Part shown: positions 14,610-49,061 of the stretch, piece by piece
Layout of the letters: every line of letters begins with the position of its first letter
Numbering within the stretch: position 1 is the stretch's first letter
Origin: Yuukianura sp. NJ FZ-2021
Taxonomy: Eukaryota
Assembly: GCA_046563655.1 (NCBI GenBank)
Contig: CM102284.1
Location: 2,728,001-2,792,000 of the forward strand
Direction of reading: 5' to 3'
DNA length: 64,000 nt
Program-made: the position numbers and the translations under genes
The notes under the pieces: generated by a model
Told to the model about the DNA's origin: nothing
The model's database searches: none
The model's input: the letters and a program-made list of their open reading frames with translations, nothing else

Positions 14610-17600
14610 GACTTGCATTAAATTATTGCACATTGCTAATCAAGGTAAAAGATCAGACCAAGTGAAAGCTCTCAAGGCATGACTATATCACATCCACTAA
14701 TGGGAACAAATGTGTCGTACACAAATAAAATTACCCTGAAAATCTTAATTCTCACCTCAAATTAGTTTTAGTTGATTTTTAAGATTAGTGAATTTGAAGA
14801 TACATATTTAATTCTGCCATATACTATTTCTTACGCCGTAGACAGGTTGAAAGTTTATGGTGATCTGAAACATGACTGCAAATCTTTTCGTGGTGGCGGT
14901 GGGGGTGCCCTTATGTAGGCGCATTTCGGACTTGGACAATGGTAAATTTTTGTTCTACATTTAGCACAAATCCCCTTCAGGCACACCGTGCATCTTGAGC
15001 GGGTGTTGGTTCTCTTCGGGCAAAAGTAGCATCTTGAGGTTTTTGCCAGGAGTTTGGGCTTTTCAGTGTCAAGGGCGCCTGTTATACGACTTTCCAGTGT
15101 TTCATCCTCAGTTCTACCGTAGCCAACCTTCTCAAGGACACTGTCAAGGTACCTTGACGGCATAGGCATTCTTTGAATTCTAGTTGAAAATAGAGGATGC
15201 ATCAGTCCTTCAGAAAGGCGTCTCAAGAACATTCTTCGCGTAGTGCGATGGAAGTCAGCCGAACTTTTGTGCATTTTGTAGACAACGTATGCGTTGAGAG
15301 CAGCTATGTCCAGGAGAGCTTGGAAGATCTTTACCGGCCACCTAAATAGCATTAATTGTCTAATCGGTTGCTAGGCTGGAGCAAATGAAAGTATATTAAT
15401 TGGCATGGGAAACTCTACCTTCCAGTTGTCCTCTGGCAAGAATAATTAGCAATCATTTGATCTGCGGTGTCTACGCCTGCTTTGGTCATGTTGTAGTCCA
15501 AAATAATTTTGGGTTTAAATGGACGCAGCGAATCTATTTCAGCGGCATGGTGCTGCGTCGATAGCAGTAGCACTGCTCGATTCTTTTTCGGAACATATGA
15601 AACCTTCCAAATACAACAATTCACCTTTCTAAAATTTTTCATATTTTGTTGTATAGTTATGGTGCGTTAAAAAAAGTTCCTACCATTGTAAAATCTCCTT
15701 GAAAAGCAAACACTGAAGATAAAGGCTCCCGTCCTTTTGGATTGACGAACTGCGGAATGACGTCCATACGATTGTGGTTGAGCGTTCCCAGCATCGACAT
15801 CTTTTGCTTAATCAGTTCTTCGCCCAAGGATTTAGACGTGAAGAAACTGTCCATTGTCACCCCACGTCCAGAACCAAAATATTTTTTAACCAAATTCAAA
15901 ACAACTTTTTTCCCATGTTCCCGCTCCACCTTGTCACCAATTTTCCCTTGGTAGAGGTCAACCTTCAAAACATATCCAGTTTCAACGTCACAGACAGCCC
16001 ATAGCTTCATTCCAAACCTTAAAGAAACATAATATTATTAACTGACAAACAATGGATTTAATAATGTTGCCCATACTTTCCTGGCTTGGACTTCATGTAA
16101 ACTCGGAATTTGGAACTCCCATGAAATCTGACCAACATTTCATCCACAATGAGAGTGTCGTAAGGACGCAAATGTTTTTGCATATTTTCTACGAACGGCT
16201 CAAGTACTTCCGAGATGTAAGAAACCTTGGAACCAACGTCATCTTCGGCTTCGGATTCCTTAGTTGTTATGCGTGCTACTTTGTCATCAAACCTCAGAAA
16301 ACTGCCTATTGATCTGAATCTGCCTATGCCCATTGTCGCTATTATTAATGGAATAGAATAATGTTCATTCATCATCCACGCCTCCTTATAAGCTGTATTG
16401 CTGAAAAGAATAACAGTATTCAAAACTTAAATTCAATTCAAAACTCTAAAAGTTTTAAGGTTTACCGCAACTTTCCAGTTCCAAAATAGAGGAGTATTCC
16501 AATGTAGGCATACATTTCATCCAAGGTTAGTGGTTTCCACTTTATCACGATACCGGCTTTGTTTTTTTTCGGTTTCACTTCAAATACATACGTAGCATAG
16601 GCATTCGTGTGTTTCACAATCGTTTCTACAATGGCGGGTGGGAACATCAGTTTAAAGATCTCAGTAGGAGTCAATGTGCTGTCCTTCGCTTTGCCGACCA
16701 AGCCGCCTTTTTCTCTCAGGACTTCATACGCTCTTGTCTGTCTCTTGTGGTTCGGTTCCATGGTTGTCCATACTGTTTTATCTTTTGCCGTAAATGTTGC
16801 TTCTTCTTGAACGACTTTAACAAAGGTTCGTTCCTTTTCTTCATGTTTGGAGGTAGGGTGAAGAGAATGCTTTGGTTTGAAAGTGTGCTTTTTGCAAAGC
16901 TCTGCGACTGAATCTGCCGATTCCTCGAATATGACTTTCGTCTCTTCATTCTTTGCATCGTAGTCAGATTCTGGACTATCATTTTCACTGTCACTTGACT
17001 TGGAATCGGACACTTCGGAGTCGCCTTTCTCCAGCTCCCAATCTGAACCATTATCATCGTCAGCTTCAACTTCCTCTTCTGAGTCCGAACCTAACAAGAG
17101 TTCAGAATTAAAATTTTACTTTTTTCAGATTGTTTGAAACGGGAGTTTTAATATATAGAAATTCTTTTAGATTTTTTTAATGAGAAAGTGTTTCAGAATG
17201 TATTCAATCTGCTTCTTTCAGTGTTTTTTTTCTTTTTTTTTTTTGCAAAAATTATTTGTAGCAGGTGATTAGTGCGACAATAATTAGCGCAAATTAAGCA
17301 ACAGATGGGACAGGTTTCATTAGAGTTTAGATTTACTGTTGACAACTTGTGGGATTCGCGTTAATGACCCTTAAGCAAACCAACACTACTTTTGTTGAGA
17401 AAATTCTTTGTTTATATGAAATAAAAGTGGTTCAAACACTTACTCAGAGCTTTTTGGCACTTTGAACTACCAGGGATATCACGTGCTTTAGTATGCTCGA
17501 GACGCGACGACTTTTTGACAAATGGAGAAGTTGACGAGTTTCTTCTGTTTTTGAGCTTCGGTTTCAGACTCCTATCAACTTTCTTTTTTATTGGGAAAGA

Positions 17601-20075: not shown

Positions 20076-23000
20076 GACTTGCATAAAAATATTGCACACT
20101 GCACACCAAAATCAAAGATCCGACAAGTGAAAGTTCTCAACGCATGACTGTCACATCAACCCTTAAACACAAACAGTACACTCATAAACTTATGCTGCAA
20201 ATCTTAATTCTTAACGACGTACCTCAAATTAGTTTGAGTTAATTTTTAAGATTACTATAGCAAATTTGAAAATAAATTTTTAACTCATCCCTTTACTTTT
20301 TCCTACGTAGACAGGTTGAAAGTCTATGGTGATTTGAAACTCGACTGAAGATCTTTTCGTGGCGGCGGTGGGGGTGCCTTTATGTAGGCACATTTTGGAC
20401 TTGGACAATGGTAAATTTTTATTCCACACGTAGCACAAATCCCCTTCTGGCATACCGTGCATCTTGATCTGGTGGTTTTTCTGATTCCTTTCGGGCAAGA
20501 TGCGCAAGTTGTGAAAAGTTGCTGCACGAGATTCGGTTTCTCAGTTTCAAGGGCGTTTGCTATTCGACTTTCCAGGGTTTCTTCTTCAGTTCTACCGTAG
20601 CCAACTTTCTCAAGGACCCTGTCAAGATACGTAGTTGTTGAATACATCCTTTGGATTCTAGTTGAAATTCGGGGTTCCATCAGTCCTTCTGAAAGCGTCC
20701 TCAAGAACTTTTTGCGACTAGTGCGGTGAAAGTCATTAGTACTTTTGTGCAGCTTGTGGACGACGTATGCGTTGAGAGCAGCTATGTCCAGGAGCGCTTG
20801 GAAGATTTTTACTGGCCACCTAAATATTATTAATCTTCTAATCAGTTGCTATAGGATGGATCAAATTAAAGCATAGAAATTGAAATAGGAAACTCTACCT
20901 TGCAGTTGTCCTCTGACAAGAATACGTAGCAATCATTTGATCTGCGGTGTCGATGCCTGCTTTGGTCATGTTGTAGTCAAGAATCATTTTGGGTTTAAAT
21001 GGACGCAGTGAATCTATTTCAGCGGCATGGTGCTGCGTCGATAGCAGTAGCACTGCTCGATTCTTTTTTGGAACGTAGGAAACCTTCGAATGACAATAAT
21101 TCATTTTTAAAAAAATTTTTCTTACTGTGTTGTGGGATAATGTTACGTTAAAAGTAAGTTTTTACCATTGTAAAATCCCCTTGAAATGCAAACACAGAAG
21201 ACAAAAGTTCCCGTCCTTTGGGATTGACGAACTGCGGAATGACGTCCATACGCTTGTGGTTGAGCGTCCCCAGCATCGACATCTTTTGCTTAATCAGTTC
21301 TTCGCCCAGGGATTTGGACGTGAAGAAATTGTCCATTGTCACTCCGCGTCCAGAACCAAAATACTTCTCAACCAATTTCAAAACAACTTTCTTCCCATGT
21401 TCCCGCTCCACTTTGTCACCAATTTTCCCTTGGTAGAGGTCAACCTTCAGGACATATCCAGTTTCAACGTCACAGACAGCCCATAGCTTCATTCCAAACC
21501 TTAAAGAAACATAATATTACTAACACATAAGACATAACAAATGGATTTAGTAACATTGACCATACTTTCCTGGCTTGGATTTCATGTAAACGCGGAATTT
21601 GGAACTCCCATAAAATCTGACCAACATTTCATCCACAATTAGGGTGTCGTAGGGACGTAAGTGTTTTTGCATGTTTTCTACAAATGGCTCAAATACTTCC
21701 GATATATAGCAGAACTTGGAACTCTCGTCTTCTTCTATTTCGTTTTCGTTGGTTGACTTTATGCGGGCTACTTTGTCATCGAACCTTAGAAAACTCTGAA
21801 TTAAAGAGAATCTATCTCTGCTCATTGTTGCAACTACAGCGGGGAGAGAATATAGCTCCTTCGATGTCCATGCCTCTTTTAAAGCTGTATTGCTGTAATA
21901 GAATTAACAAAGCAATAAATAGTATAAAAAGAATAGTTTTAAAAAAGAAACATATTGTGCCAAAGTGAATGTTAAAATTCCCAAACGTTTTTTCCCGTTT
22001 GATTTACCGTTTCTTTTCTGTGCCCAAGTACAGTAGTATTCCGATGTATGCATACATTTCATCCAATGTTATTGGCGACCACTTTATCACGACACCGGCT
22101 CGGTTCTTTTTCGGATTCGTTTCATATGCATACGTGGCAAAGGCGTTCGTGTGTTTCACAATCGTTTCGACGATGGCGGGTGGGAACATCAGTTTAAAGA
22201 TCTGCGTTGGAGTCAATGTCTTGTCCTTCGCAGCGCCTATCAACCCACCTTTCTCTCTTAAAACCTCATAAGCTCTTGTCTGTCTCTTCTGGTTGGGTTC
22301 TACGGTTGTCCAAACTGTTTTGTCTTTTCCCGTAAATGTTGCTTCCTCCTGAACGACTTTAACGAAGGTTCGTTCATTTTCTTCATGTTTAGAAGTGGGG
22401 TGAAGAGAATGCTTTGCTTTAAAAGTGTGCTTTTTGCAAAGCTCTGCGACTGAATCTGCCGATTCCTCGAATGTAGCTTTCGTCTTTTCAATCTTTGAAT
22501 CGGATTCTGGATTTTCAGTGTCACTGTCACTTGATTTGGAATCAGACATTTCGGAATCGCCTTTTTGCAGGTTCCAATCAGAACCATTATCCTTCGCTTC
22601 AACTTCCTCTTCTGATGAGTCCGAATCTAACAAGAATTTGGCATTAAGATTTTATTTTTCTTTCAAAGTGTTTGAAATTAAAGTTTACGTCGAGAAAAAT
22701 TCTGCGACGCACGTTTTGATTTTTTTAAGCTAACAGAGTTCTAAATGACGTTTTGAGTTGGGGTAATTTTTTTGTGAATTATAGTGTGACGTTTTTTTTT
22801 TCAAAGAAATAAGTAACTTTTGATGAATTTCAATTTTTTAAGCGAAAGGACATGAAGGACATGTACACTCACCAATTGCCTTCTGTCGTTTCGAAATAGT
22901 ACCAGGAGCATTACTTGTTTTACGACGTGAATTAAATTTGGCGACTGCGGAAATTGACGAATTTCTGTTTTTCAGTATCGGTTTTACACTGCACGCAACT

Positions 23001-25960: not shown

Positions 25961-27421
25961 ATGGGCAAACTACTGTCCAAACTTATTCCAGTTACTCCTT
26001 GCGACAAAACAACGAAAACTTTAGCAGAAATTTTCGAAGAAGCTGGCAAAATACAGGATTGGCTTGTGACTGTCGTTTGCGAAGAAAAACGCGCAGCAGG
26101 CTTTGGACACGCCTTTTTACTTTTCAAACCGTCGGGTAATTCGCAATATTTTGCTCAACGACAATTGAATTATATGCGTCTTCTATTATTCGTAAATTTT
26201 ATGTAGTTTAAATTCAAATTCCCAAAAAATTTTAATATTTCTAAAAAGAGCAATCACCTATTTGGTTTCAGCTAACGTATTGGTGATTCATTTGCCTAAC
26301 GTAATGTAATATAATAGTATGTTCCAATACAACGTAACATGTAGTATCCAAAGACTATAGTCTTGGATGAAATGCAGCTTTTCTACTTTACTATGAATCA
26401 TGAATCAAATTGCAATAATTTTGAAATGTGACAATTCAAAACTATATTGAACCTGAAATCTCCTAGTGTGAAGTGCCTCTTGTCGCTTGAATTGTGTGAT
26501 AGGTCAGTGTGTCAATAATACTTGACGATAAGGATATCTGGGTGTTCTAATTTTGTCCGCTCACCGTATCTCTTTTTTACAGATTATTTCTCTGAGTGTT
26601 TCAAAATTTCAAATTATGAAAACATAGTTTTGCGTCGAATTGTCTCGATGTCTTCTCAGCTTTCTCGCATAAAAATACACAACGTCAATTTGGCAACTTG
26701 CTTAAGGTGTCGTTTTTAAGAAAATGATATTGTGTATTTTTTTTGCCATCAGCTCATAAATACATGGGGCACCATGAAATTAGCGGGGGTGAGAGGAAAG
26801 ACGCCATTAGTTCAAAATCTAATTGGTCAAAGAACTTAAAGGGTTAAAAAAAAACATTAGGTTCAATGTGTATGTAGGTTAGGTATTTGAGCTAATTTTT
26901 CGAACCAGTTTAGTTTGAACCAATGTTATGGAACCGCGATTTCCTAATTTTTCATTTTGATGTCCACAGGCGAAGGCGAACTCCCCCGTGATCTGATTGG
27001 CTTTCGCTGTGACCTTGGCCCTTCTCAAAATCCAAATTCAGTCCACGTAAAGAAGCTGGGAATCACTTCGGCAGAAATTACATTGGAAAAAGTAGATTTG
27101 AGCGAATACAAAAATCCGCGTTGCCTTAAACCATATCCACTTACATCTGTTCAAGCCGCTAAAATATTCCAAAGGATTGAATCTGACATTCGGAAGCAAA
27201 GTTCGGGGACACCAATTTTGTACAATCCAGCCGGATTTCACGAGTCCTTTGAAAGCTCTTTTGGAAAACTTGAGCATCAAAATTGCCTGTCGTATTGCAT
27301 GGATGTGCTGAGGGAGTTGGACATTAAAGTTGGAAACAAAAGAGACTTGATTAAGTTGCCGAGAAGAACGATTCCACGTGTGCCAATGGAAACGCAAATT
27401 ACAATTACTTCAGACTCGTAA
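25961..27421 (+). CDS. 208-aa permuted papain-like (NlpC/P60, PPPDE/LRAT-type) protein with predicted N-myristoylation
   Basis: Exons 25961-26135 and 26970-27421 (phase-1 GT-AG); starts MGKLLSK; His motif FGHAFLL precedes Cys motif YN...NCLSY. Confidence 0.65.
26806..26924. mobile_element. Small MITE-like inverted repeat in intron
   Basis: attagttcaaaatctaattggtc vs gaaccagtttagtttgaaccaat are imperfect inverse complements; central taggttagg. Confidence 0.4.
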
Positions 27422-27580
27422 GATGGATAAAAGCTTATGTAAATTGTAGTTTAACTCAAAATTAAATAAGGTAGTAAAAATGTATTAAAATGAGCATAGA
27501 AAAAGTAAACTTATAAAATTAAAACAACTCAATTTATAAATTTTTACGAAATTGTTATATTTTTGTCAGGTAAAGTCAAG

Positions 27581-30500
27581 ATGGACTCCCAGTACTTGGA
27601 CGAAGATTGGCAGACGCTCGCTTCTAACTTTAAAGATTACTATACGCAATATTTTCTTCAAACTTTACCACTGTTCCAAAAACAAAATATTTTCATCGAG
27701 CAAAATGGTTTGGCGGCAAATTCAAACACAAGCGTCCCACTTTTATCGGCTTTGGCTCAACAACTCTCCAGCCCCGAAGATAGCATGAAGTACTTTGTGG
27801 TGATGGCAGATTCTGGAATTGGTAAAACAACATTGGCACTTCAACTTACTTTTAAACTTTGGGAAATGTATGAGTTGAGTGCTGAACATGAACACTACAT
27901 ACCCGTATACATCTACATAACATCCACTACTAGTGTCGTGGAATTGAATACAATCTTAAAGGCGTACCTAACGTATCCCAGAGTCATTCTAATACTTGAC
28001 TGTTACGAACAACGTTTAAATGAGGTCAGAGATTTCGTAGAGGCAGATTTAATTTTTTTGCACGAAAACATCAAATTTGTTGTAATGTGCAGAACCGTAC
28101 CACACTTGTTCTTTGGAAACCTTGTCACACAATTTCAATCGCAATTGTGCATTTTCCGACTTCAAAAATTTACCACTGATCAAATGTTGCAGTACGCTGA
28201 CAAATTTGACCGTGTTGACAGTGATACTGAGCATGTACATTTGCAAAATGAAGGAGCGGTTGGGAGTAGCGCGAAACTGGAATTGGCGTCGGCACCATGT
28301 GCTAAAAAGTGGCTGCAGGAATTGCTCATTTTGGTACCTGCGTTGAAGGAATTGGCAAAAATTCCACTTTTTCTGTCCATTCTCTTTCAAATTTCTCCCA
28401 GGCTTTTAGAAAAATTTAAAAAGTCAGGTGAATTAAGTGAAACAGCCTTATGTTTATCAAAGGCAGAAATTTTTGATTACTTTGTTGAGTATTGGTTTGA
28501 TTTTCAAATTGAGCGGAACCTACTGAACTCACGGGATCAAGATTCTAACATTCAGCTACTCCACAACGAAAATCGTTTAAAACGTTATATGTTTGCGTAC
28601 ACGCAGAATTTGGCTGAAACACTGGTTGACTCTGAGAGTGGCATTTTGTATGATGATCCTATTTCAGACACTGATTGCATTTCCTCTGAGTTGGCAGAAC
28701 CTTACTGTGACCGTGACCTATTAAATCACTATAAAACACATTTTCTCAGTCAATCGCAATATATTTCAGACGAATTGGCAAATCTTTTACAATTCCTTCG
28801 AAATTGTTCGTTAGTTGTACCAGAGTCGAATGGGCAAAGCTATCGCTTTTTGCACAGGTCCTTTGCTGAGTATTTTATTACGAGAAAAATATTTGTGGGG
28901 CTTAAAAGTCGTTTTGAATTTGGATCACGTGGTTTGACTGTATCAACAAACGGTGAACAAAATTTACTCGACACAAGGTCACCTAAGTGCTTTGAAGTTG
29001 GTTTTCTACAACTATTGGCAGATCGGGCAGTTGTGAATACTGATTTTGCAGACGTCCTGTTTGCAATTATCGAGTCTTCCCGAGAGAATCTGACTCTTAC
29101 AAATTTAGCAGCCAATTCCATCACGATTCTGAATTTGGCTGGAGCGAGTTTTGAAGGAAAGAACTTTATAGATGTTCAAATTCCAAACGCAATTCTGATT
29201 GGAGCTAAACTTGCAAATGTCAATTTCCAAAAAGCAAATCTGGGAAATGTCGATTTTTCTCAAGCGTGGCTGTCTGGCGCTAATTTTGAAGGAAGCAATT
29301 TAAATGGTGCCACATTTGGCCAAATAGAGATTTCCACTGGTGCGATAAACACAGGTCTTGCCATTTGGAAAGACTGTAGGCAACCTGCAGAACCTGTAAA
29401 TATTTTAGTCGGATGTCGTAACGGTTCTATTTACTTTTACAGACAGAAGTCGGGAGAGTCCAAATTCGAAATTGCGAGGGAACTCCGTCACTCTAAAAGA
29501 AAAATAGGCTTTATAGATATCCATGTTTCTGGAAATTTGTTATTAAGCTGTATGTCAGGCATGGAGTTAAAATTTTGGAATTTGGTTTCCGGAAAAATGC
29601 TTTTTAAAATGTCGATGGATGTTGAAATGGCTTCGCTAGACAGTCTGGAAATTCAGGAAAAGATAAAGCAACGTTTCGAATCTTCAGTTTTTGAGTTAAC
29701 TGCAGACAAAGTCGGAAAATTTCTGGCTATGTTGACATTTTTCCACGCACACAAAATTTTATTGTATTCTTTGGAACAAGTTTTGCTGAAAGAGAAACCG
29801 AAGTTATTCGCATGCCTTAGTACTGACGTTCCAGTGCTAAGGGTTATGATTAATAGTCAAGGAACATATATAGCATTGAGTACTTTACAAGCCTTGGAAC
29901 TTCGTGACATCACCAATCCGCATCACCGACTTCTTGTCCTGTGCCAACCTGAAAAAGACTTTTCAATTATACGGTTCAGTCCAGATGGAAATTGGTTGAG
30001 CTATACACAAACGAAGTACGTTAAAATTTGGAATTTACAAAATGTACATGCGCTTAGCAAAGCAGAAACCAATGTAACAGAGACGTTGAAGATAGGAATA
30101 CGCAACAGGGATACAGTTATTGATGCTAGTTTTACCTCCGAGAATCAAAATTTTATTGTCTGCACTAGTGACTCAATGTTAAGCTCGGCTAACCAAGGCT
30201 GTTACCTTAACGTTTACTCTTTGTCAAGCGGACAGTTGAGACAAGTCATTAACACTGGTGTTGAAATCAGATCCTTACAACCCTTCAACGGATTAGTCGC
30301 CACCATTTCACAGGATTTCCGATCCGCTCACGAAAGCTTCAAACCAAAACTGTTACAAATTTGGTATATTTCTGATTGGGCAAAAGAAGCTGTGGATATC
30401 TCAGACACTGTGAATGACCGTCCGTTCTTTCATGTGGCCATTTCACCTGCCATAGATTGGTTAGCTACTGCGCATGTCAGAAGGAATGCTGATGGTGCAG

Positions 30501-32254
30501 AGAGCATGTACGTGTATTTGTGGAATTTGGTTACTGGACGTTATATATCCATGATAGATGTGGGTGATGTTGGAAAATTAGTGTACATGGGAGTTTTGCA
30601 TAATGGAAGCATATTGGTACTCGGTAACCGCGGAGAAATCAAAGGCGGCAAACCTTATCCGCATGAAAATTTAAAAATTTTGTCTGTCGTCAATTCAGTT
30701 GACAAGACAAGTGAATCAAGCGAGTACAAATTAAATGTGGAGTTCAGTTGTAGGTTAGCTGTACGTGAGGAAGAAACTGATCCATATCGTAAACACATAA
30801 AGTTTGGTACTGACTACAACTTTTCAGTGATGTATTCGGCAGAACTGGATAACTTTGGAACTAAATTGGCAGTAGCCGATTTTCATGATGTCAAACTCAC
30901 CGTGTACGGCGTTGATTCAATGTTCAAAGATTCAACAACTTACAGTTGGACACCACCAGCTAATCAACCACAGTTCAAGTGTGATGAATATATGAATATT
31001 GGTGACATTTGTTTTCATCCCCAATCTAGTTCCTTATTGGTTACCACGAATCGCAACCTGGTGTGTTGGAACTTTCATGATCATACCGTAGTTTACTGGA
31101 TTCCAGGTTTCAGCCCAAATTTTGATCTAGTTGATACATCCGTAGGGTCTCGGTTGGTTGTTGGAGACTCTGCGGTATACACAGCTACGGCAGAACAGAT
31201 TAAAGTGTATCATCAATCCAAAGATGAACTAACTTATGTGTCTAAGATTACCGTCTCGAATATGTTTGAATTCAATCCTGGAATTGTACAATTAGGTTTT
31301 GCAGCCGAATCTAAAATGTTATTTGCAGCGCTGTCCGTAGACAATGAAATACTCGCTTGGAAGGAAGTAAAGGGCTTCTTGGATCCGGTTCTGCTGAAAC
31401 CGCCGTTAAAACTTTGGTCCAAAATTTGGAACATGCATATTTTTTGTAATAATGATTCCAAGCACATTTCAATTGTGCTTACGGATCTGCACGATAAGTT
31501 GTCACTGGTTAAGTTAAACACATACACCATGACTTGGACATTAGCCTGGTCAAATTCTCCTAGTTTTCGACTTTTTGTGCAAAATGCTATGATAAATGAA
31601 ATTGTTTCACCTACTCCCGCTACAGTAGAATTACTAGCAAAGAAAGGTGCTCAAGGAGTTCCCGCCTCCAAACTCCAAACTTACTTACGTTCCACCACTT
31701 TTAAGTTTGGGTTGCCGGGAACTGCATTTTCTGGAGTAGAGTACTCGATTTTTTGTGAATTTTTAAATAAACAGTCGGTAAAAGGCAGTGGATCGGAGTC
31801 TCTTGAGTTATCTGAAAACGTTTGGACAGTTTCTGCAATTAGTACTCATACTCGGAGATTAGACCCATTTGAGCACGTATCCTTGCTCATAGAAGGCATT
31901 AAGGATACCCGCAGATTCGTTTTTAGAGCAGAATTGATCGCGGAACTTGATTCAAAGAGAGTGGCAATTCGTGTACGGCCGTTTAGAAATCGAAATGATT
32001 TGGAATATTTCGTCGCCCGTGTAACAAAATGTAGGTCTTGGTCAGTTTCTAAAGAAAGAGGAAACAAACTGATCATGTCAATTAGGGATAGTCAACTGAC
32101 TCCAATGGAGTATAACGTACGAGACAAGAACTGCGTTGTCTGGTCACTAGAAACACTTAAGGAATGTGGAGTAGAAGTGCATAGGTCAAAATATAACTCA
32201 TTGTTTGTTCTGCCTAAAAACATTTTCGAAAACGCCTATACTAAGCGTACATAA
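27581..32254 (+). CDS. NLR-like STAND protein: NACHT NTPase, pentapeptide repeats, WD40-like propellers, C-terminal permuted papain-like domain
   Basis: Uninterrupted ORF (1557 aa from ATG 27581). ADSGIGKTT (Walker A), VILILDCYEQ (Walker B), KFVVMCR, ELAKIPLFL, YRFLHRSFAEYF; AANSITIL followed by pentapeptides (ANLGN, AWLSG, ANFEG, SNLNG); WD-like FSPDGNWL..VKIWNL, VYLWNLVTG; tail FEHVSLL...YNVRDKNCVVW. Confidence 0.88.
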   Translation: MDSQYLDEDWQTLASNFKDYYTQYFLQTLPLFQKQNIFIEQNGLAANSNTSVPLLSALAQQLSSPEDSMKYFVVMADSGIGKTTLALQLTFKLWEMYELSAEHEHYIPVYIYITSTTSVVELNTILKAYLTYPRVILILDCYEQRLNEVRDFVEADLIFLHENIKFVVMCRTVPHLFFGNLVTQFQSQLCIFRLQKFTTDQMLQYADKFDRVDSDTEHVHLQNEGAVGSSAKLELASAPCAKKWLQELLILVPALKELAKIPLFLSILFQISPRLLEKFKKSGELSETALCLSKAEIFDYFVEYWFDFQIERNLLNSRDQDSNIQLLHNENRLKRYMFAYTQNLAETLVDSESGILYDDPISDTDCISSELAEPYCDRDLLNHYKTHFLSQSQYISDELANLLQFLRNCSLVVPESNGQSYRFLHRSFAEYFITRKIFVGLKSRFEFGSRGLTVSTNGEQNLLDTRSPKCFEVGFLQLLADRAVVNTDFADVLFAIIESSRENLTLTNLAANSITILNLAGASFEGKNFIDVQIPNAILIGAKLANVNFQKANLGNVDFSQAWLSGANFEGSNLNGATFGQIEISTGAINTGLAIWKDCRQPAEPVNILVGCRNGSIYFYRQKSGESKFEIARELRHSKRKIGFIDIHVSGNLLLSCMSGMELKFWNLVSGKMLFKMSMDVEMASLDSLEIQEKIKQRFESSVFELTADKVGKFLAMLTFFHAHKILLYSLEQVLLKEKPKLFACLSTDVPVLRVMINSQGTYIALSTLQALELRDITNPHHRLLVLCQPEKDFSIIRFSPDGNWLSYTQTKYVKIWNLQNVHALSKAETNVTETLKIGIRNRDTVIDASFTSENQNFIVCTSDSMLSSANQGCYLNVYSLSSGQLRQVINTGVEIRSLQPFNGLVATISQDFRSAHESFKPKLLQIWYISDWAKEAVDISDTVNDRPFFHVAISPAIDWLATAHVRRNADGAESMYVYLWNLVTGRYISMIDVGDVGKLVYMGVLHNGSILVLGNRGEIKGGKPYPHENLKILSVVNSVDKTSESSEYKLNVEFSCRLAVREEETDPYRKHIKFGTDYNFSVMYSAELDNFGTKLAVADFHDVKLTVYGVDSMFKDSTTYSWTPPANQPQFKCDEYMNIGDICFHPQSSSLLVTTNRNLVCWNFHDHTVVYWIPGFSPNFDLVDTSVGSRLVVGDSAVYTATAEQIKVYHQSKDELTYVSKITVSNMFEFNPGIVQLGFAAESKMLFAALSVDNEILAWKEVKGFLDPVLLKPPLKLWSKIWNMHIFCNNDSKHISIVLTDLHDKLSLVKLNTYTMTWTLAWSNSPSFRLFVQNAMINEIVSPTPATVELLAKKGAQGVPASKLQTYLRSTTFKFGLPGTAFSGVEYSIFCEFLNKQSVKGSGSESLELSENVWTVSAISTHTRRLDPFEHVSLLIEGIKDTRRFVFRAELIAELDSKRVAIRVRPFRNRNDLEYFVARVTKCRSWSVSKERGNKLIMSIRDSQLTPMEYNVRDKNCVVWSLETLKECGVEVHRSKYNSLFVLPKNIFENAYTKRT

Positions 32255-33922: not shown

Positions 33923-36195
33923 TTAGTGTACAGGAATCAATTTGACAATAAAAGGACGCGGTTTTATGGTCAGCGACGGCGAGCCTGGTTCCAATGATGG
34001 CTCTCTGCCTTCGACGATATCCAGATAATATTTGTTAAGGATGCCCGTTGTCATCATAAACAGTGTTATCATGGACATGTTTTCACCAGGACAAACCCTT
34101 GCTCCTTAAATTCGATTTTAACATTGTAAATCGCAATATAACTGACTGACAAATTTTACTCTCATTCTTACCAATGCCAAACTGATCGACGCGTTCCGAC
34201 TTGGAATTGTCGAAATTTCCGTCCGGCAGAAGAAGGCGTTCCGGCCGAAAGTTTTCTGGATCACCCCAATAGGATTTGTCGTGGAGAATTGCCCAAGCAT
34301 TAGGAAATAGCAGAGCACCTTTCGGTATTTTGTAACCAGCGCATTCAAAGTCTTGTATTGCTAAGCGTGGGGTACGAACGGGAATGTATGGAGCATGACG
34401 CATCACTTCCAGAAGCACGGCTTTGGTATAAGGCATTCTAAGCACATTTCATGTTTTTTATAGTGTTAAGAAATAAAAGTGTATTCAATTGTTAAATTGG
34501 AACACTCACGCTGCCATCATCGTCGACGGAAATGGAATGAATCTACTGTGCACATGTTGCTCCATTTCTTTTCGTACTTTTTTCTGAACATCAGGAAACA
34601 TCGTCAAATACAGAACAATCCATTGGATAGCCGTAGCAATAGTATCGGATCCGGCAATAAACAAATCCATCAGCGTCAGTACAAACTGGTCCTCTATAAA
34701 TGAGATAAATTAATATAAAGTATAATATGCTAATAAGTATTTCTGCCTATTTAATTTATAAACTCCGTTCGCCCTAAATGTTCACTCTGTCCATTCTCTC
34801 TGGGAAAAGGAGGCGGAATATTTATAGCGAACGGTGTATAATATGTCATATAATCTAAGCTAAGCTAATACAACCTAAGAGACAATTAGAAAACCCATAC
34901 CATTTAGAACTACGTTCGGTTGCCCTTTGTTTTTCTCAATGTCGTCCAAGTAGGCTTCTATAAAGCTCTCAGGTTCCACACGTCTAGCCCTTCTTTGTTT
35001 AGCATCTTCCACCAACTCCTGTTTATAATTTATCGTTGGTTTTAAAATTTAGAGTTAGAAAAAGTTCCATTTGAAAAAATTGAAACTAAAAGTGGAAATT
35101 TTTCTAACCAACATAAACTCCTTCATGTCTCGATGTATTTCGTAATGATTTCTGTATCCACTCCACTCTGGGAAAATTTTTAGAAAAGGAAAAACAGCTA
35201 GATAATTTTTCGCTCCTGCTGCTTCAAATATTTGTTGAGTGCACTGTAAATGGCGCTTCATTTTGGAACAGTGTGGATCAAATCGGTAACCACCAACAGA
35301 CGCCCAAAGGATGTTGATACTCAAAGCGGAAAGTCGAGTAATGTCTACGTTCCAAATACCGTCAGAAGGAGTAATTTCGTGATCAACTTCATTCAAAAGG
35401 TCATTGACCTCGGTTTGAATTGCTTCATCCATTGTCATTTTCCTACCAAATTCAAATTGACGCAGGAGTCTTACTGTGTATCGTTTTTGTTCTCTCCACG
35501 TATCGCCGTAGCCCCAAACAATTCCTGCGGAGTTTACATTTAAAAAAAAATTCTAAACGGTGTACCACAGTTGACATTTGGTGTGGAGAAGCTGGTCTTA
35601 TTTTTAACTTTAACTTAATGTTAGCTTGAAATATATACGATAAGTTGATTACTGCTTATTAGTGGTAAGGTGCATTAATTGATTGCGTTAGGTTAAATTC
35701 GATGTCGATGTTACTTACCCAGATTTTTGAAGTTGTTTCTTTGTTCCATAAATTCAAATCTGCCTCTGTCCATTGCTTCAGGACGCCGTAGTATTTCTCG
35801 CATAATTTCAAAGTTGGATAAAACCACTTTAAAATATTCAAAACATTTTTTATTGAAATTCGTTTTTTTTCAAAATTCTTTTTTTGAGTATGGTACCTGC
35901 GTAGTGTACTCCATACCCAATTGACATAATTCCACCATATTTCCTTGCGAGACCAGTCAATTGTAAATGCGGATGCTCGGGATGTTCCCTGAGCATTTGT
36001 GGAAGACTTCCTAAAATTGGCCATCGAAACGGCCCTGAATACGGCCAAAAAAGATTAAATTGTTAAATTGCTAAACAAGTAATTAACTAACCTTATTTAA
36101 TTCTCACCTGGTGGTAATTTCCGGTTATCGCTAAAACGTTTGAGCATCCATAAAAATAGAACTGTTAATGTAAACACAAAAATAGCCCCGACCAT
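33923..36195 (-). CDS. Cytochrome P450, CYP2 clan (copy B, inverted paralog of 8279-10484)
   Basis: Same intron positions and near-identical exons; I-helix DLFIAGSDTI; EVMR; FRPERL; FGIG|ARVCPG. Confidence 0.93.
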
Positions 36196-39174: not shown

Positions 39175-40473
39175 GTCCAGCAGAATTAAAAGTGGAACTG
39201 CTTCTTGACTTTTCTTGATTGCAAAACGTTGCCCTGAAAAGGCAAGAGATGAAGTAACACTTATTTGAAGTTTGAAGTGAGCAATTAGCGATGTGACACC
39301 GAGTTTAAACTAGGTATCTAAAATGTGGTTAGGACTTAATTTGGTAAAGATAAAGTCGTCAATACTCCTGTCCAAATGTCAGTTCCAGAAGTCAAGAACC
39401 TTTCTGATGTTTTTCTTCAGATAGTACTTATACCTTTCAGTTTCCTTGTCACGGAAAACTTCTAATTGTAAGCCTACCATCCAAGATGAACAAAAGCATT
39501 TTGAAAAAATGAAAAGGTTTTGTTCTTATCATGTAAAAATTTGGAAATTATCTGTTAACATTCATTCGCTTGATGCTCTACTTTTCGTTTAAAATGACGT
39601 AGGTAAAAAGGCGTTAGTAAACACGGAGTGCTAAAGTGCGAAACTTGTGAGTTTTTAAGTGAATCAGAGAATTGTCCATCAACTAACTTTCAAAAAACGT
39701 TTATAAAAATTTTCTGCCTTCGACTTTACTAAAAGTAACAACTATAATTGCGAGCATGCTAAAGTTATTTTAGGCTTTTCATTGGAAACTTTTTCTATAA
39801 GCTCAATGCTCAAACTTGACTGACCCACCTAATGAAAAAAAAATTCTACACTTCTTCTTAACATTTTAACCTAAAAACAAGAACGTTTCGCCAGATTTCG
39901 TCAAAGCTAATAATGCTTTGCTTTAAAGTTCTTCTGTAAACAACAATGAAATCGAGCAGAAGAGTTTTCGAATATCAATTTAAAGAAAAAAGTTTATTAT
40001 TAGTACGCGAACCATATACTACCATTAATGAAATTGTTTTTTGTCATTTGTTGCCGTAAGCGTAGCCTCTAGCCTGCCTCGCTGCAAACTTGAGTGATTA
40101 GACGAGTGATATTAAAACTAATTACGGTTTGAAGCTGAGTACTTCTTTGGATGATTAATTCAGTTCTTAATTTAAATCCAATGAAAACTCTAATAAAGCA
40201 GTGGGAGAGGTTCCCAGAAAGTCACGATTCTGAAACGCTAAATTGGAATTGGGAATCTTATCACAGATCACGATCACCAAATGAAAATAAGCACTTAAGC
40301 ACAGTCCATTTCACTTTATTTGTGGTACTGTTGTCAAAGTGCTTTTCGATGTCAACTAACATAAATTGGGCGGAAATTAATTAATCACTTGTTAGTCGAA
40401 AGAGGAGTCATGATTTGGAAAAGCATTTCGCCAGTTTCCGGAGGATCCATTTCTCCTGGAAGTCCATTTGTTC

Positions 40474-43400
40474 ATGATGTCTGCTAAGTTCAAGTCTATC
40501 TTGATAGCTTTTGCAATCGTAGGGAGTCGCTCGACCTTTGGCACCTCTGTTGGGAAAAATGTGCAGGGTCAAAATGGATACTTATGGAACACCGAGACCT
40601 CGTTTCTCGGATGCTTCGCCAGTTGGGAGAGTTTGGACAAGGTCATAGGTCAAGGATTCGTTGAAAAACGTGTTGGAGTCAGCGGATGTGCTCTATTATA
40701 CTCCAATACGGTAAGAGTGTCAAAAAAAGTGTTGCCTTTTGGAAAAAAAAGTCAAACATTTCTTTTTTTTTTAATTTTTAGACCAACCAGAACGGGATTG
40801 TTTTAACCCGGGGAGGCTTATGTATTTTGACTAGCTGGGAAAAGCTGCTCCAGGAAGTGAAGGATTTGACCCGAGTTCAGGAAGACTTATGTGACGTTGA
40901 CTGTCCTGTGACTATCATCGGTCCAGCGACTGTTGGCGACCAACTATCTGAACGTGGACACTGTGGCGGAAACTACTTCTTTTCAGTATTATGTGCCAAG
41001 TCGGCTTCTGACAACTTCCTTGATCACAGTCCAGAAGAACCAGCTTGTTCCATTCCCGAAGAAATCCGATTCGATCCGAATTATGTCCTACCAGAAAATA
41101 CTGTTGATGAAGACTCGCTGGAGCATAGATGTGTACAAATAAAAGTCAGCGACCTTGCGCCACTTCCGGTAACCTTTTTGGTCAACAATTCACCAATCAA
41201 CTGTGCAGGTTTTTGTCAGCATTTTTACTCCTTCAAGAAGATAATATTCAATATGAAAACCTTCGGCGTCGGCTTGCTACAGGCAAAGATACAGACAGTA
41301 CGGATGTCATATTACAACTGTTTTTGTCTAAATTCATTTGATTTGGTCATGTGGGGCAGCAGAACTGTGTCTGACGACTACTGTCTCCAGCAACCCTGTG
41401 TCAATTGTTCCGAAACGACCAATTACATCAGTTGGTACAAAGTGGCTTTCGACAAGGAGCCGAAACATTCCAACCGCAGATTCGTTCCGACCGAGTTCGA
41501 CATTGTCCTGGATACTTCAACTGACACTACTGATTGGGAAATTGGGTGTCCATATTTTGACACTTACGAGAAGTTTCAAGATGAATGCTACAACAGAAAT
41601 GAGCACGAAGTTAGACCGATACATCGGCAAACTATCGGTGTATGGTCTCCTTGTCAAAGCAGCTCGTGTCTTCTCCACTATACAAAAAATTCTCCAGTTT
41701 TAGTTTCTTTAAAACGAATTACCATTCATTACTTCATGAACGCTTCCAAAGGTTGTAAAGCTCCGTCTATTGTACTTAATTATCGAAATGGACCAAGTAA
41801 CGGATGGAAACGGGAGACCATCACAGGAGCATCTGGAACCGGATCCGGTTGGCGCAATTACACATGTCCAGTTAACCAAAAAGGGACTGAACCTGTAAGC
41901 AAATCCACCTACTGTAATCTAGAATTCATTATACTGTTAAGTTCACGAAATTTATATAACCTTGGCTTCCATATTTGTAGGAAGTGGAAATTAACTTGGT
42001 ATCAAGCTCAATACGGTGCAAGGAAGCACATGTTGTAGTACTAGACAAAGTTACGATGATCATGACTACTTTTGAGGAGGATCCCAACCACGGTGAAGAT
42101 CAAGTCACTTTGGACTTATGGGGTGACATGGTTAATGGATGGAAGCACAACAGGAGGTGTGATTACAGAAATAAATTGAAGGATTTAAAAAAATGTGGAA
42201 CACATCTACCCATCGACGATTTCAGCCGTTCTGGATTTTGGACTAACTTCTGCCCTAGACCAGTATCACGCACACGCTGGTCCGTCGACTATTGCGTGCT
42301 CACGTACATTGTTTCTGAAGAAAACAAGATCCCGGTGACACTTGCACTCTCCGCGTACTTCCCACCGAAGGAAATGTGGTGTCCGCACACAGAATTCAAC
42401 ATTAGCTTTGGACCTTACGAGAACTTGACTTCCATAGCTGTAAATGGGAGCTACGGAAGCTGGACAGATCCAGACCACCAGAATACCTGGATTTTAACGT
42501 TCCACCCACCTTTGGAAGTAGGAGACGTAAGTTTGAGGCCAACTGCAAAACTAGGAAGAATAAACCGGAGGGTACGAAAGTTGCGTACGATACAGCTGAA
42601 TTCGCGATAAAGTCAAAAAAAGTAGACGTTTTATACGGAAAGAGTCCTCTTAAGGTCACATGATGTTCACAAAGGTTGTTTAGCCTCGACGAGATGAACA
42701 ACTTTTTCATAAGGCACTTTTCATGTTAACTTTGATGAAACAAGCTGACCTGACGATGTTTAACACTGAACATTTCCGGTTTTCGACAAATTGCAGCCAA
42801 CGAACACAAACAGTCAAGCTAGATGCATAAATTAGCTTTCGCTCTTAAATATATTAGTCGATTAACTGAGATCAACAAGGTTTGTTTGGACAAATTCTTT
42901 TGGTTTCAGGTTGTAATCGTGAACTTCAGTTCTGGCCATGGTCGTGGCTTAATACTACTAGACAAAATTGTTCTCGATGTTCTACCGCCAGGCCCTGGTG
43001 AACCGACTGATCCAGAACCGTCGAGTACAACCATTACCGTGATCACGACAACAACAACAACAACAACAACAACAGAGGTCACGACGTCCACAACGACAAC
43101 GACAACTCCAGCGCCATTCAATTGCCCTTTACACAGTACAAGCAGAACCTTTACAAAAATTTCAATATGGGGAGAGATCGGAAACAAAACCTCTGAAAAA
43201 ATATGAAATGAAAATATTTACTACAGCGACTTAATTTTTTACAGCAACTGGTAGTCTTTGTAAGGAAAATCAAAGCACCAGCTACAAATGTAATCAAACC
43301 AGCTAACTGTTTTGATTGCAACTTTTTCAAATGTTTTTGCTGGTGTTCTCCCCTCATAAATTGTAGGGCTCAATTCTAATTTTGATCTAAACTAGTTTTG

Positions 43401-46400
43401 ACTTATTTCACTTGTTACAGCTATGTGTAATGCGACAGACTACCGAGGAGTCACATGGTCCATGTGTCCAGGAGAAATACAGCATCAACCTTGTCCTAAC
43501 GGCACTTCCGGAACTGCCAGTTACGAATGCCTCGAAGTAGGATACTTGGATCCCTATGGGCCGGACTACAGCAAATGCTCGAGTGGTTGGTGTTACCAAA
43601 TTGATGCGGAGGTCAATGCAGCTGAAGAGTTGACTGAAGCGGCTGCTGCCGACTATCTTCTACAAATAGAACGCGAAACCGACATTGCGACAGCGTCAAT
43701 TGGATACTTTGGGCACGAAATGAACTACATTTTGACTCTGGGAGCTGAAATTTTAATCAAAGTTAACAAATCAGCCGGACTCGAAGTTATTGAGAATCTA
43801 ACGCACATAGCAATGGGGATTTACCGAAACGTTCTCATAAATTCTCCAGGTTGGAACGACCTAACTGAAGTAAAGTTTCACAAACGAACTTAAAATTTAT
43901 AATTTTTTGAGAATTTATTAAAATTTTAAATAAATTTGAAAATTCAATTTTTTTTCTAGCGCACTGAAGTGCAAGCAGGAGCACTGCTGATTCATTGCTT
44001 GGAGATTTCTGCATTTGAGCTAACCGGAAGAGCAATTACCAAAGGTGTTGGGGAACACTACCAAATGCCATTCAACTCGTTTCCAGAAATCAGTTCTACT
44101 GCTAGTTCGACTCATAAGTTTCTTGGTAAACTGGTTTATCCACCGCCATCCAATGCTTCGTCGCCGACATTGTCAGTATCTGTAGAAATTCCAGAAGATT
44201 GGGCTTCGTATTTTCCAACTGACGATCTTGTAGACTTTGTTGGAATGACAATGCAATCGAGCTATGCCAATGAAATATTTATGGGCAAAATCCTGGCAGA
44301 AGAGCATAGTCATCCTGTTGTCAACGGTCATTTGGTGTCATTCACTTTTGGAAATGGAACGGATTTCTCGAAAAGCCGGATCAATTTTGAAGGTAACTTT
44401 TTAGATCAAAATTTCGGATAAATGTGCAAGAAAAAACACTTCGATACCAATTTTTATTGCAGAAAACGGCGTGCGAATTACTTTCAAGCATGAGTCGCCT
44501 GCATCTGGGTCAGAGGTCAAAACAATTCGGAGGAGACTTCATACAGAGACAGGCGAAAAACCGACTGTGGCTCTAGACGGAACAAATCCTTGCCATTTCT
44601 TGGACGTAACACAAATGTAAGCAAGTTTTAGAATTTAATATTTAGAACAATATTTTATTTTATTAGCATTTTATTTTATTGTGTCTAAATTTCAGGAATT
44701 TTTCGTCGTACGGATGTGCCTTGATTGAGCAGACGAAATACAAAACAGTTTGCGAGTGCAATCATTTAAGCTCTTTTGCCATTCTGATGAACACGAACAA
44801 CTACGTTGTAAGTTTAATCTCAATAAAATAATAATAAAAAAAAGTAAACAAAATAAATTATTATAAATATTTTAGGGGAAGGACTACTATTTAGAAGTTC
44901 TTACTTTGACGCTGTGTTCTATTTCCATCATTTGCTTAATTCTGTCTATTGGAGTTTACTCCATGCCAAGCATTAAGGCAATTCGGGGTCAACGCAGTGT
45001 CATCACTCTACACCTCTGCATTTGTCTTCTCGTTGGAAACATTTTGATGGTGGCCTTTGTGGACAGAAATTATTTTCATCTCACCCTGGTCAAAAAGCAA
45101 ACATTTTTCAAAATTTAGTGTAAATTAAAATTTTGATTTTATTTTCCAGGGATTTTGTACAACTTTTGGAATCATGGCCCACTACTTCTTCCTGGCTGCC
45201 TTCTTTTGGATGGCCTTTGAAGGCTACGTTTTGTACAAAGTGCTTATTGTTGTATTTGATGATGGGAAGGACTACTTTGCAATGCAGTATGTCGTGTCAT
45301 ATGGTGGTCCAGGAGTAATTGTTCTAGCTACTGGACTCACTGCTGTTGCCCTACGACATGACGCCTACGAATCAGACATGTAGTAAGGAATTCAAAATTT
45401 TGAATGAAAAACTCCACAAATGAAAATTTTAGGCTCACATAATACAATATAATTTTTCGTTTGGAGCTCTTTTTGAAAATGTGCTGTTTTTTAAAATTTC
45501 TAAACAGTTGTTGGCTGAGTGGAGACTACATTTGGGCTTTCATGGGACCAGTGGCACTGATTCTGATAGTACGGCTGCTTTACATGTTTTCTAAACCTTG
45601 TTCAAAACAAAGTTTCTAGCACAGTTTGAAATTATATTTAGGTATCAATTAATGATAAGCTTAAATGTTTTTAGGGAAACACTGTGATGTTGGTCATATC
45701 GATACGGAAAGCAAGAAATTTGTCGAAGAATTCTGTCGTCAAATCCCACTCTCAGCGTCATACTAAATCGTTCATGTAATGTATTGTTAAGTTTTTTACT
45801 GCAAAAACATTTTTGAAAATGTTTGCTTTACTTGAAGCATTTTTTCATTTTTGTGTGACTTTTGCCAAATAGGAAATGGATCAAAGGATGTGCTGGACTG
45901 ATGTGTTTGTTGGGAACTACTTGGATTGTTGGCTACTTCATGCTCATTGAGGACGCAGTAGTCTCCAACATTGCTGCATATGTATTCACTATTCTGAATG
46001 CATCCCAGGTATATTACTTAAGTTTTTTTTAACTCACATATTGTTTTGACTTTGTTTTAATTTCTTTTTAACTTTTTTTCTTGTTTCACTCAAGGGGGTT
46101 TTCTTATTCGTCTACCACATTTGTTTGAACAAGAAAATTAGACAGGTTTTGATGAGTCGTCTGCCCAAATTTTTATTTTCTACGCAAAAGACAACGACTT
46201 CTACTGCAAGCGGAACTCCAGCTATTCCTGTACGTGCCCGTTTAAGATTCTCAGCTTCAAACGATTCATTTTGAGTCTTAGGTTAGCTTATTAGTTTACT
46301 CTTTTAAGAAATTTTTTGAAAAAATATCTTAATTCTCAATAATTTCCAAGGACATGACCTTAACTTTTGGAACGAAATGGAGCCGAAGGAGAGCAAAGTT

Positions 46401-47556: not shown

Positions 47557-49061
47557 ATGGGTTCTCTTAGCTCATCACAAGTGCAGGAGGAGGTTATTTC
47601 AACCGAAAATGACAATTTGAAAAACAATGAACAAAGTACAATGGATGTTGGACATGTTCAAACAAAAGCGGTCGGAGGATTGCTTACACCAATCAACTCC
47701 ACGACGCCAAAATTGTTCACGCCATTCGCAATCCGCGGTGTTACGTTCAAGAACAAGTTTTTCGTAAGTTTAAACTTTTGAAAAAAAAAATCTTCTTCCT
47801 CTAATTTTTTTCAAAATTGGGTTTCACCTTTGACCTAACTTTAATTTTGTTGCTTTCAGGTATCTCCAATGTGCATGTACTCATGTGACAAACAAGATGG
47901 GATCATGACTGATTTCCATTTGGCCCATTACGGGAATTTGGCACTTCGTGGGCCAGCATTGGTAGTGATCGAAGCGACATCGGTTGAACCGCGTGGACGC
48001 TTGTCGCCACAAGACACTGGAATTTGGAGTGACGAGCATATCGGACCGCTTCGACGCATTGTGAACCTCGCGCATGCTTCCGGAGCTAAAATAGGAATTC
48101 AAATTGCTCATGGCGGGAGAAAAGCTGGAACAAGACAGCCATTTTATATGTTTGAAGAAAATGGCGGGAAATTGAGCCGTGATGGAGCTGTAGTTCCAAA
48201 ACATGAAGGTGGATTTCCTGATGACTTCGTAGCTCCAAGTCCAATTCCCTGGAAAGAAGGAGGTCTATTTCCGACTCCACACGAACTTACGACGGAAGAA
48301 GTCGAAGAAATTGTTCAGAAGTTTGTTGATGCTGCTAGAAGAGCTGTTGAAGCTGGAGTTGATGTTATTGAGGTGATCATCCGCCTGTAAAACGACTTTC
48401 AAAAGTGAATTTACAGAATTCTGTTTTAAAATTTTCGTTTTTTTTTTAGATTCATGGTGCCCACGGTTATTTGATCCACAGTTTCCTCTCAGGAAACACA
48501 AATAAGCGAACAGACAAGTATGGCGGGACACCGGAAAAGCGACAGCAGTTCCTGATTGAAATCGTCGAAGCTGTTCGCGCCGTCATTCCAAAGGAGATGC
48601 CTCTATTCTGTCGTGTGTCCGGCAGTGACTGTGTTGGCAATGACATTCTATCGCCAGATCCAGAAGGTTGGGATGTTTACCAACTGACTGACCTCTGTCA
48701 TAAGATTGCCCCCTTGGGGGTTGACCTCATTGACATTTCTTCTGGAAACAACTTGTCCACTCGCGGAGGTGTGTTTTTGGGGGGACATGGATATCATCTT
48801 CCTCTATCTGAAGAAGTGAAGAAAGCCAAGATTCATGGACTTTTAGTTGGATCTGTTGGTGCTTTGCATGAAGGTCAAGTAGCAGAAGGAGCACTGCAAC
48901 AAGGAAAAGCTGACGTGGTTTTCGTCGGGAGAGGGTTTGTGAATGATCCGAACTTGGTCCAAACAGTTGCCAAGGAACTGGGTGTCTATGCTCGATGGGC
49001 TGATCAGTATTCGTGGTTCCATGATTTTCCACAGCTCAAGCTGGACGCTAACATAATGTAA
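47557..49061 (+). CDS. NADH:flavin oxidoreductase / Old Yellow Enzyme (YqjM/NamA-type)
   Basis: Exons 47557-47763, 47860-48372, 48450-49061; KLFTP..IRGVTFKNKFF|VSPMCMYS, EATSVEPRGRLSP.DTGIW, GIQIAHGGRKA, E|IHGAHGYLIHSFLS..NKRTDKYGG, GKADVVFVGR. Confidence 0.92.

Follow-up and report, generated by a model that had tools for sequence, protein, structure and literature searches.

Results

Two adjacent genes and their products

We analyzed a 64,000-nucleotide stretch of contig CM102284.1 from Yuukianura sp. NJ FZ-2021 (GenBank assembly GCA_046563655.1, forward-strand positions 2,728,001 to 2,792,000), hereafter called the window and numbered from its first letter. Within it, two genes that each encode a copy of one enzyme-like domain lie side by side on the plus strand, in the order of a small two-exon gene (25961 to 27421), a 159-bp spacer, and a large open reading frame (ORF) that ends at 32254. 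An initial annotation of this DNA had placed both genes, together with the codons of their candidate catalytic His (26108 and 31874) and Cys (27284 and 32132) residues, and these coordinates are correct by ORF calls and frame arithmetic.

The large ORF is uninterrupted from either a TTG at 27563 or the first ATG at 27581, and encodes 1557 amino acids (aa) from the ATG. Its predicted product combines a divergent NACHT ATPase, pentapeptide repeats, a beta-propeller region, and a C-terminal domain (CTD), with the NACHT assignment only indirectly supported. The module that we assign to the NACHT-type STAND (signal transduction ATPases with numerous domains) nucleoside triphosphatases (NTPases) spans 27581 to 29137 (aa 1 to 519). 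Its Walker A motif reads ADSGIGKT (aa 76 to 83; 27806 to 27829), in which G79, G81, K82, and T83 are invariant across 11 sequences. In the Walker B motif (about aa 139 to 144; window positions 27986 to 28012), D140 is invariant, and the window protein has LDCYEQ where 10 relatives have LDGYDE. The loss of the Gly and the replacement of the last acidic residue by Gln may affect ATP hydrolysis. The N-terminal ~500 to 700 aa are 23 to 30% identical to the large relatives (E values from 8e-31 to 6e-63), and 10 of the 11 aligned members match Pfam NACHT (PF05729) at E ≤ 0.01 (best 3.9e-11), the sole miss being the window protein. The NACHT identity given in the initial annotation is thus supported indirectly, through the relatives, and not by the window NTPase's own Pfam score. 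A word-indexed search with the whole large protein returned a single match, a fungal NACHT-WD40 protein with 25% identity.

Pentapeptide repeats follow at 29138 to 29332 (PF00805, 45.8 bits against a cut-off of 20.2; PF13599, 39.1 bits against 38), and NCBIfam pentapeptide models match the protein weakly. The beta-propeller or WD40-like region (29399 to 31804) has hits of its own that stay under Pfam cut-offs; it aligns with the relatives, and WD40 or propeller families are present in 6 to 7 of the 11 aligned members. The CTD, with the stop codon, occupies 31805 to 32254 and contains the His codon at 31874, Asn-Cys at 32129 to 32134, and a Tyr-to-Cys loop of six residues. Because only ~75 aa precede Walker A, the large protein has no N-terminal effector, and no Pfam family matched those residues. 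Pfam scans and the alignment of members together bear out the architecture first proposed for this protein, with an NTPase, pentapeptides, and a propeller, the extra domain at the far C terminus, and no effector in front. The GC content at third codon positions (GC3) of the large ORF is 0.37, inside the 0.35 to 0.51 range of the other coding stretches of the window.

The small gene starts at an ATG at 25961 and has a spliced product of 208 aa. Exon 1 (25961 to 26135; 58 codons plus one base) begins with MGKLLSK and carries a conserved Trp and the His codon at 26108. The intron (26136 to 26969; 834 nt, GC 0.33, phase 1) is of predicted spliceosomal type, with GT..AG ends, the donor CGG/GTAATT, and the acceptor TCCACAG/GC. 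Exon 2 (26970 to 27421 with the stop codon) encodes an acidic residue after the His, a Y..NC motif (Cys codon 27284), and an LP motif. Predicted splicing gives one continuous 208-aa frame. A hidden Markov model (HMM) of bacterial stand-alone copies (n = 14 proteins) scores the spliced small protein at 20.8 bits versus 14.6 bits for exon 2 alone. Exon 1 therefore contributes ~6 bits, which also supports the splice model. The N-myristoylation rule combines Gly2 with Ser/Thr at position 6, and the MGKLLSK start fits it as a motif. The small proteins consist of the domain alone, with no other Pfam family matched in them.

The spacer (27422 to 27580, 159 bp) is AT-rich (GC 0.21), with three ATTAAA signals along it. 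At 27569/27570 lies a strong acceptor-like site (..TTTTTGTCAG/G), consisting of a pyrimidine-rich tract and then CAG/G, which is phase 1 and in frame with the exon-1 donor. Joining that donor to 27570 yields an open frame of 1619 codons, so the two genes could form a single, alternatively spliced unit. A GTAAGA donor-like site overlaps the stop codon of the small gene.

The small protein is a stand-alone copy of the C-terminal domain

The last ~145 aa of the large protein constitute its CTD, and the small protein is a divergent version of this domain on its own. BLASTP between the two aligns the NC..LP block alone (8 of 31 residues identical, E = 0.016 to 0.025), and exon 1 by itself gives no BLASTP match to the large protein. 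A gapped local alignment of the small protein with the CTD has z = 4.3, a score reached by 0 of 500 shuffles, and the global alignment has z = 3.4 (matched in 4 of 500). We built an HMM from 25 relatives and kept the window's own CTD out of it. With this model, the spliced small protein scores 20.9 bits (E = 1.7e-5 among 1856 sequences), against a maximum of 6.1 bits in 1000 shuffles. When compared by hhalign with 64 CTD sequences, the small protein aligns at 98.5% probability (E = 3.5e-15) over 147 columns, covering its residues 33 to 194. That one domain with His before Asn-Cys is common to both genes, as the initial annotation had claimed, is thus confirmed by two HMM tests and hhalign, and the similarity blocks it had named are those paired by these alignments.

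The CTD defines a distinct family

We searched 1.84 billion representative proteins with the last 164 aa of the large protein and found 24 at E ≤ 1e-3, three of them at E ≤ 1e-10. Half of these representatives (12 of 24) are proteins of 1026 to 1673 aa with the CTD at the C-terminal end. Window-type CTDs and the bacterial small proteins described below align by hhalign at 99.5% probability (E = 1.9e-22). No model in Pfam (in a copy without PF27349, IcsB_M), NCBIfam, or PADLOC exceeded its cut-off on the CTD, and a word-indexed homolog search found none for either the CTD or exon 2 of the small gene.

Across 65 aligned CTD sequences, the Cys, an Asn or Ser directly before it, and a Tyr or Phe upstream are each present in all 65. 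A His upstream of the Cys is found in 63 (the two exceptions are fragments), Glu30 also in 63, and an Asp, Glu, or His at column 43, which lies 19 residues past the His, in 61. The distance from His to Cys ranges from 82 to 255 residues. Both window copies retain these residues, except that the alignment of Glu30, which coincides with the intron position, is ambiguous in the small protein. Crude propensities suggest four strands and then helices, with Asn-Cys at a helix start. The CTDs form a family of their own, marked by an invariant Cys and a near-invariant His upstream.

Comparison with papain-like enzymes

The best reading of the CTD is a putative circularly permuted papain-like (NlpC/P60-type) thiol enzyme. 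The initial annotation had made this assignment from the order of His and Cys. The order itself holds throughout the family (His in 63 of 65 sequences, Cys in 65 of 65), but all family profile matches are below significance. Among 20 CTD members, sub-threshold Pfam signals comprise Peptidase_C97 in seven (best E = 0.0026) and LRAT and Lnb_N in one each. Look-alikes in a protein-language Atlas, at 0.94 to 0.95, are clusters carrying IcsB_M, TseH, and Lnb_N, some of which are mostly eukaryotic, with Mollusca commonest.

Several enzyme families with catalytic His and Cys that target lipid acyl groups, namely TseH, Tox-Act1, LRAT, YiiX, and DUF4105/Lnb, are described as circularly permuted NlpC/P60 enzymes in excerpts of one study (PMC12994826). 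The CTD resembles these lipid enzymes, including PLAAT alongside LRAT, in the order of His before Cys and in a candidate polar third residue past the His; it also resembles them in its small size (~140 to 230 aa) and, as far as the excerpts go, in its conflict-system contexts. It differs by the lack of a significant sequence match and, relative to what those excerpts describe, by being fused behind a NACHT-repeat protein. The best, nonsignificant hhalign path between the CTD and Lnb_N pairs their Y..NC motifs, and PF13387 (Lnb_N) matched none of five CTD-bearing genomes.

For IcsB-like lysine fatty acyltransferases, the available part of another paper gives an inverted papain fold with a His-Asp-Cys triad (PMC13059803). 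IcsB and RID N-epsilon-lysine fatty acyltransferases (IcsB_M, PF27349) come close to the CTD in that its named top Atlas look-alikes (0.95) carry IcsB_M. The IcsB catalytic domain is ~237 aa long and its His-Cys spacing is 161 residues, whereas the spacing in the window CTD is 86. One nonsignificant hhalign path sets the CTD Cys on Cys306 of IcsB, and the IcsB catalytic region was found in none of 400 gammaproteobacterial genomes, CTD holders included. PPPDE/DeSI (Peptidase_C97) is the sole Pfam family that CTD members match repeatedly (7 of 20, at profile positions ~57 to 128 of 151). It has the same His..NC order and a similar Tyr-to-NC spacing, but all CTD scores are under its 29.2-bit cut-off. 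The PPPDE profile (PF05903) matched none of 300 gammaproteobacterial genomes, and no control matched either. PPPDE is, in our view, no more likely to be the kin of the CTD than the permuted NlpC/P60 enzymes directed at lipids.

The gene pair recurs in Gammaproteobacteria

One large relative of the window protein, P0011, is encoded on a 2.9-Mb contig of an uncultured gammaproteobacterial metagenome-assembled genome. That genome has two large CTD genes, each followed directly by a same-strand stand-alone CTD gene of 220 to 226 aa. Of 64 genomes of the same order, 9 have CTD matches at E ≤ 1e-3, and in a sample of 401 genomes from the class, 11 have them at E ≤ 1e-5. Searches of metagenome contigs for two other relatives, P0001 and P0022, returned neither, and a tblastn search of plasmids gave no match.

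We inspected both flanks of 16 large CTD genes (≥900 aa) in six genomes. A same-strand short CTD gene (≤263 aa) directly adjoins 5 of the 16: both large genes of genome G001, one in G253, and two in G118 that have a single short gene between them. A looser count of 7 of 16 adds a weak, convergent 291-aa ORF (G165) and a 417-aa CTD ORF upstream of a leucine-rich repeat (LRR)–CTD protein (G222). The pair recurs, then, but is not obligatory, and the recurrence of large and small genes raised by the initial annotation was found in Gammaproteobacteria (G001, G118, and G253). Because the pair recurs in bacteria, the pairing in the window is not a local accident. DotI/IcmL exceeds its Pfam cut-off in all five CTD holder genomes tested versus 0 of 14 controls, and Fic and patatin genes adjoin one of the loci (L001). 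The recurrence of the CTD family, and of large-short adjacency, in Gammaproteobacteria with a Dot/Icm type IVB secretion system is new here. This recurrence of adjacency supports a coupled module, which probably moved between intracellular bacteria and eukaryotes.

Other bacterial loci show further arrangements. In G222 (L075:5845-8649), the CTD ends a 935-aa LRR_6 protein without a NACHT match, with the 417-aa CTD ORF 216 nt upstream; the CTD thus serves as the C-terminal module of more than one kind of repeat scaffold. Four large NACHT-propeller-CTD paralogs (1417 to 1570 aa) and one 263-aa CTD gene lie within ~25 kb of G118 (L069/L070; C2:192000-225000). Bacterial stand-alone CTD genes, often in tandem or in neighboring pairs, also occur with no large gene nearby (L007, L011, and L009/L014). 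A further CTD match in G222 (L034; C1:1764307-1764708) is split by a TGA stop into frames of 52 and 116 aa and is probably a decayed copy. A three-gene cassette was considered and rejected, the 280-aa ORFs upstream of the two G001 loci being unrelated to each other.

Phylogeny of the two copies

The loop between the conserved Tyr and Cys is exactly six residues long in the window CTD and in 12 proteins without a known source. It measures 12 to 167 residues in all 38 copies from bacterial genomes and 20 in the window small protein. In a quick maximum-likelihood tree of 63 CTD rows (fragments P0020 and P0021 left out), the six-residue-loop group forms one clade (11 of 12 rows; Shimodaira-Hasegawa–like approximate likelihood ratio test, SH-aLRT, 89), which is sister to a clade with the G001 large protein (SH-aLRT 90). 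The window small protein, which has a long branch, groups with the G001 partner protein (SH-aLRT 84), also its best single-sequence match (E = 4e-5). These placements suggest that the pair was inherited together.

Genomic surroundings

The window holds animal DNA, with cytochrome P450, BCS1, old-yellow-enzyme, trypsin, and hormone-receptor (HRM) matches and piggyBac-type transposase ORFs. The locus lies among ordinary animal genes: P450 exons flank it on either side, and the others encode a BCS1-like AAA protein, an oxidoreductase of the old-yellow-enzyme type, and, in one exon, a trypsin; they lie at 8903 to 9397 (+), 34083 to 36048 (−), 47869 to 49061 (+), 50627 to 52128 (−), and 60848 to 61357 (−). 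Two ORFs of ~210 aa upstream of the locus (16462 to 17097 and 22004 to 22633, both on the minus strand) each match the start of the piggyBac-type model DDE_Tnp_1_7 and are probably two copies of one element. A series of same-strand ORFs (112, 403, 208, 127, 156, and 150 aa) extends from 40468 to 44421 (+); an HRM domain matches at 43423 to 43893, and the 403-aa ORF has no family match. The second long intronless ORF of the window (728 aa, 57995 to 60181, minus strand) is uninterrupted and has a weak F-box-associated LRR match (25.9 bits, under the cut-off). Rfam and tRNA scans of the window found nothing.

Discussion

The best overall explanation of this locus, to which we give a probability of roughly one-half, is a NACHT-linked CTD that acts as a thiol enzyme and is coupled to a free paralog, the module having been exchanged between intracellular bacteria and their hosts. 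Under this explanation, the repeats would bind a ligand, the NACHT module would oligomerize, and the CTDs would cluster. Clustered CTDs might then be activated by proximity, or might recruit the free paralog through homotypic contact. The paralog is probably N-myristoylated, judging from its N-terminal motif, and would be membrane-bound. The most likely substrates of the CTD would be acyl or lipid bonds, those targeted by LRAT/PLAAT, TseH, Tox-Act1, Lnb, and IcsB, and isopeptide bonds, the target of PPPDE, would be less likely; the enzyme would then attack membrane lipids or lipid-modified proteins. Exchange between intracellular bacteria and eukaryotic hosts could have run in either direction. 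A more specific proposal is that the two genes form a death or defense module exchanged between Legionella-like bacteria and animals, in which a switch of the NLR (nucleotide-binding, leucine-rich repeat) type, with its executioner, a lipid-directed permuted-papain thiol enzyme, behind the sensor, would fire it together with a free, membrane-anchored paralog through homotypic assembly. We regard that proposal as possible, and tentative.

The locus can be compared with known systems at two levels. The window protein resembles NACHT-WD40 STAND proteins (NWD, TEP1, and NPHP3 types, and bacterial NACHT proteins) in having a Walker A motif, a divergent counterpart of Walker B, and C-terminal repeats, and its relatives match NACHT. 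It is unlike them in lacking an N-terminal effector, in carrying an enzyme-like domain past the repeats, and in having pentapeptides between the NTPase and the propeller. The pairing recalls fungal NWD2/HET-S, in which one domain copy is on the NTPase protein and a second copy comes from the adjacent gene. Effector-associated domain (EAD) pairs of NTP-dependent conflict systems likewise have a domain copy on the NTPase and another on the adjacent gene product, an arrangement taken to mean homotypic recruitment in the portion of Kaur et al. (PMC7159879) considered here. The same domain is present on the NTPase protein and the adjacent product in the window and in G001, G118, and G253. In EAD pairs as that portion describes them, however, the second copy serves as an adaptor joined to a distinct effector, whereas here the partner is a lone domain that itself looks catalytic.

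Several results weigh against this explanation. The window NTPase fails the Pfam NACHT (PF05729) cut-off, its only hits being nSTAND3 (16.3 bits, cut-off 27.2) and AAA_16, both under their cut-offs, and its Walker B departs from that of the family. Every Pfam papain-like match of the CTD in the 20 members is under the cut-off, and there is no PADLOC match. By hhalign, the CTD aligns with a 25-sequence Lnb_N alignment at 4% probability (E = 0.01) and with IcsB at ≤0.3%, and sequence searches of the PDB with the CTD gave nothing meaningful. Between 9 and 11 of the 16 large bacterial genes have no adjacent short CTD gene, and the clear bacterial pairs mostly have the short gene downstream, while in the window it is upstream. 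Last, approximately unbiased (AU) tests allow the small protein to be the sister of the window CTD (P = 0.238) or to lie within its clade (P = 0.29); local duplication therefore remains compatible with the data, and co-inheritance of the pair is suggested, not shown. Our literature search, supplements aside, found no paper joining NACHT with a permuted papain and no relevant one joining it with IcsB or PPPDE.

Other explanations account for parts of these data. The genes may be of the kind found as eukaryote-like effectors in Legionella-like bacteria, either copied from hosts or transferred into the animal, with a role in manipulating host membranes or trafficking, and not in host immunity, and with another role, or none, for the animal copies. 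The DotI/IcmL genes in all five holder genomes fit this idea, as do the Fic and patatin genes beside L001, the fusion of the CTD to an LRR protein, and the intronless state of the large gene. The predicted effectors in a preprint on a Legionellales symbiont (10.64898/2026.04.11.717937), in the part available, also include NACHT/NLR-like and WD40 proteins. We nevertheless consider it unlikely, given that the window ORF has 1557 unbroken codons and a GC3 like that of the host, that the small gene has a canonical intron, and that the window CTD belongs to the six-residue-loop clade, which has no member among the 38 bacterial-genome sequences. An integrated decoy is a rather improbable alternative. 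Here, the small enzyme would be the real target of a pathogen effector, and the fused copy a bait whose modification triggers the NACHT switch. Such a bait would suit a domain placed past the repeats and not N-terminally, and a very divergent paralog encoded next door, but both copies retain Cys and His, as do nearly all of the 65 members, and the same pairing exists in bacteria, where decoy logic is less obvious.

The two remaining alternatives concern the relation between the genes themselves. They might be one transcription unit, in which exon 1 splices either to exon 2 or to 27569/27570, so that the NACHT protein gains an MGK... N terminus, or in which the mRNA is dicistronic. The two splice sites are both phase 1, the joined 1619-codon frame stays open, and the 159-bp spacer is short and has its pyrimidine-rich tract followed by CAG. 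Set against this are the three ATTAAA signals in the spacer, the large ORF's own ATG 11 nt past the acceptor-like site, and the readiness with which AT-rich DNA yields such sites by chance, and we think a single unit quite unlikely. That there is no functional coupling at all, the small gene being an old duplicate that arose locally from the large gene's 3′ end and then drifted, appears to us very unlikely. The AU tests permit the placements this would predict, but the adjacent arrangement is found again, independently, in three or more bacterial genomes, and the small protein has a bacterial-like Tyr-to-Cys loop of 20 residues where its neighbor has six. Moreover, its best single-sequence match is the G001 partner protein, and it retains every candidate catalytic residue.

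The finding is real, and is more interesting in context than it appeared from the window sequence alone. NLR and STAND proteins almost always carry their effector ahead of the ATPase. An innate-immune switch in which a conserved enzyme-like domain follows the sensor and is twinned with a free paralog would be wired differently. Bacteria deploy the nearest look-alikes of the CTD, which are acyltransferases and phospholipases, as toxins and injected effectors. If the two-gene death or defense module proves true, both its class of NLR effector domain and its signaling layout would be new. The occurrence of the same pairing in an animal and in Dot/Icm-bearing bacteria offers a concrete case for studies of gene traffic between hosts and intracellular bacteria.

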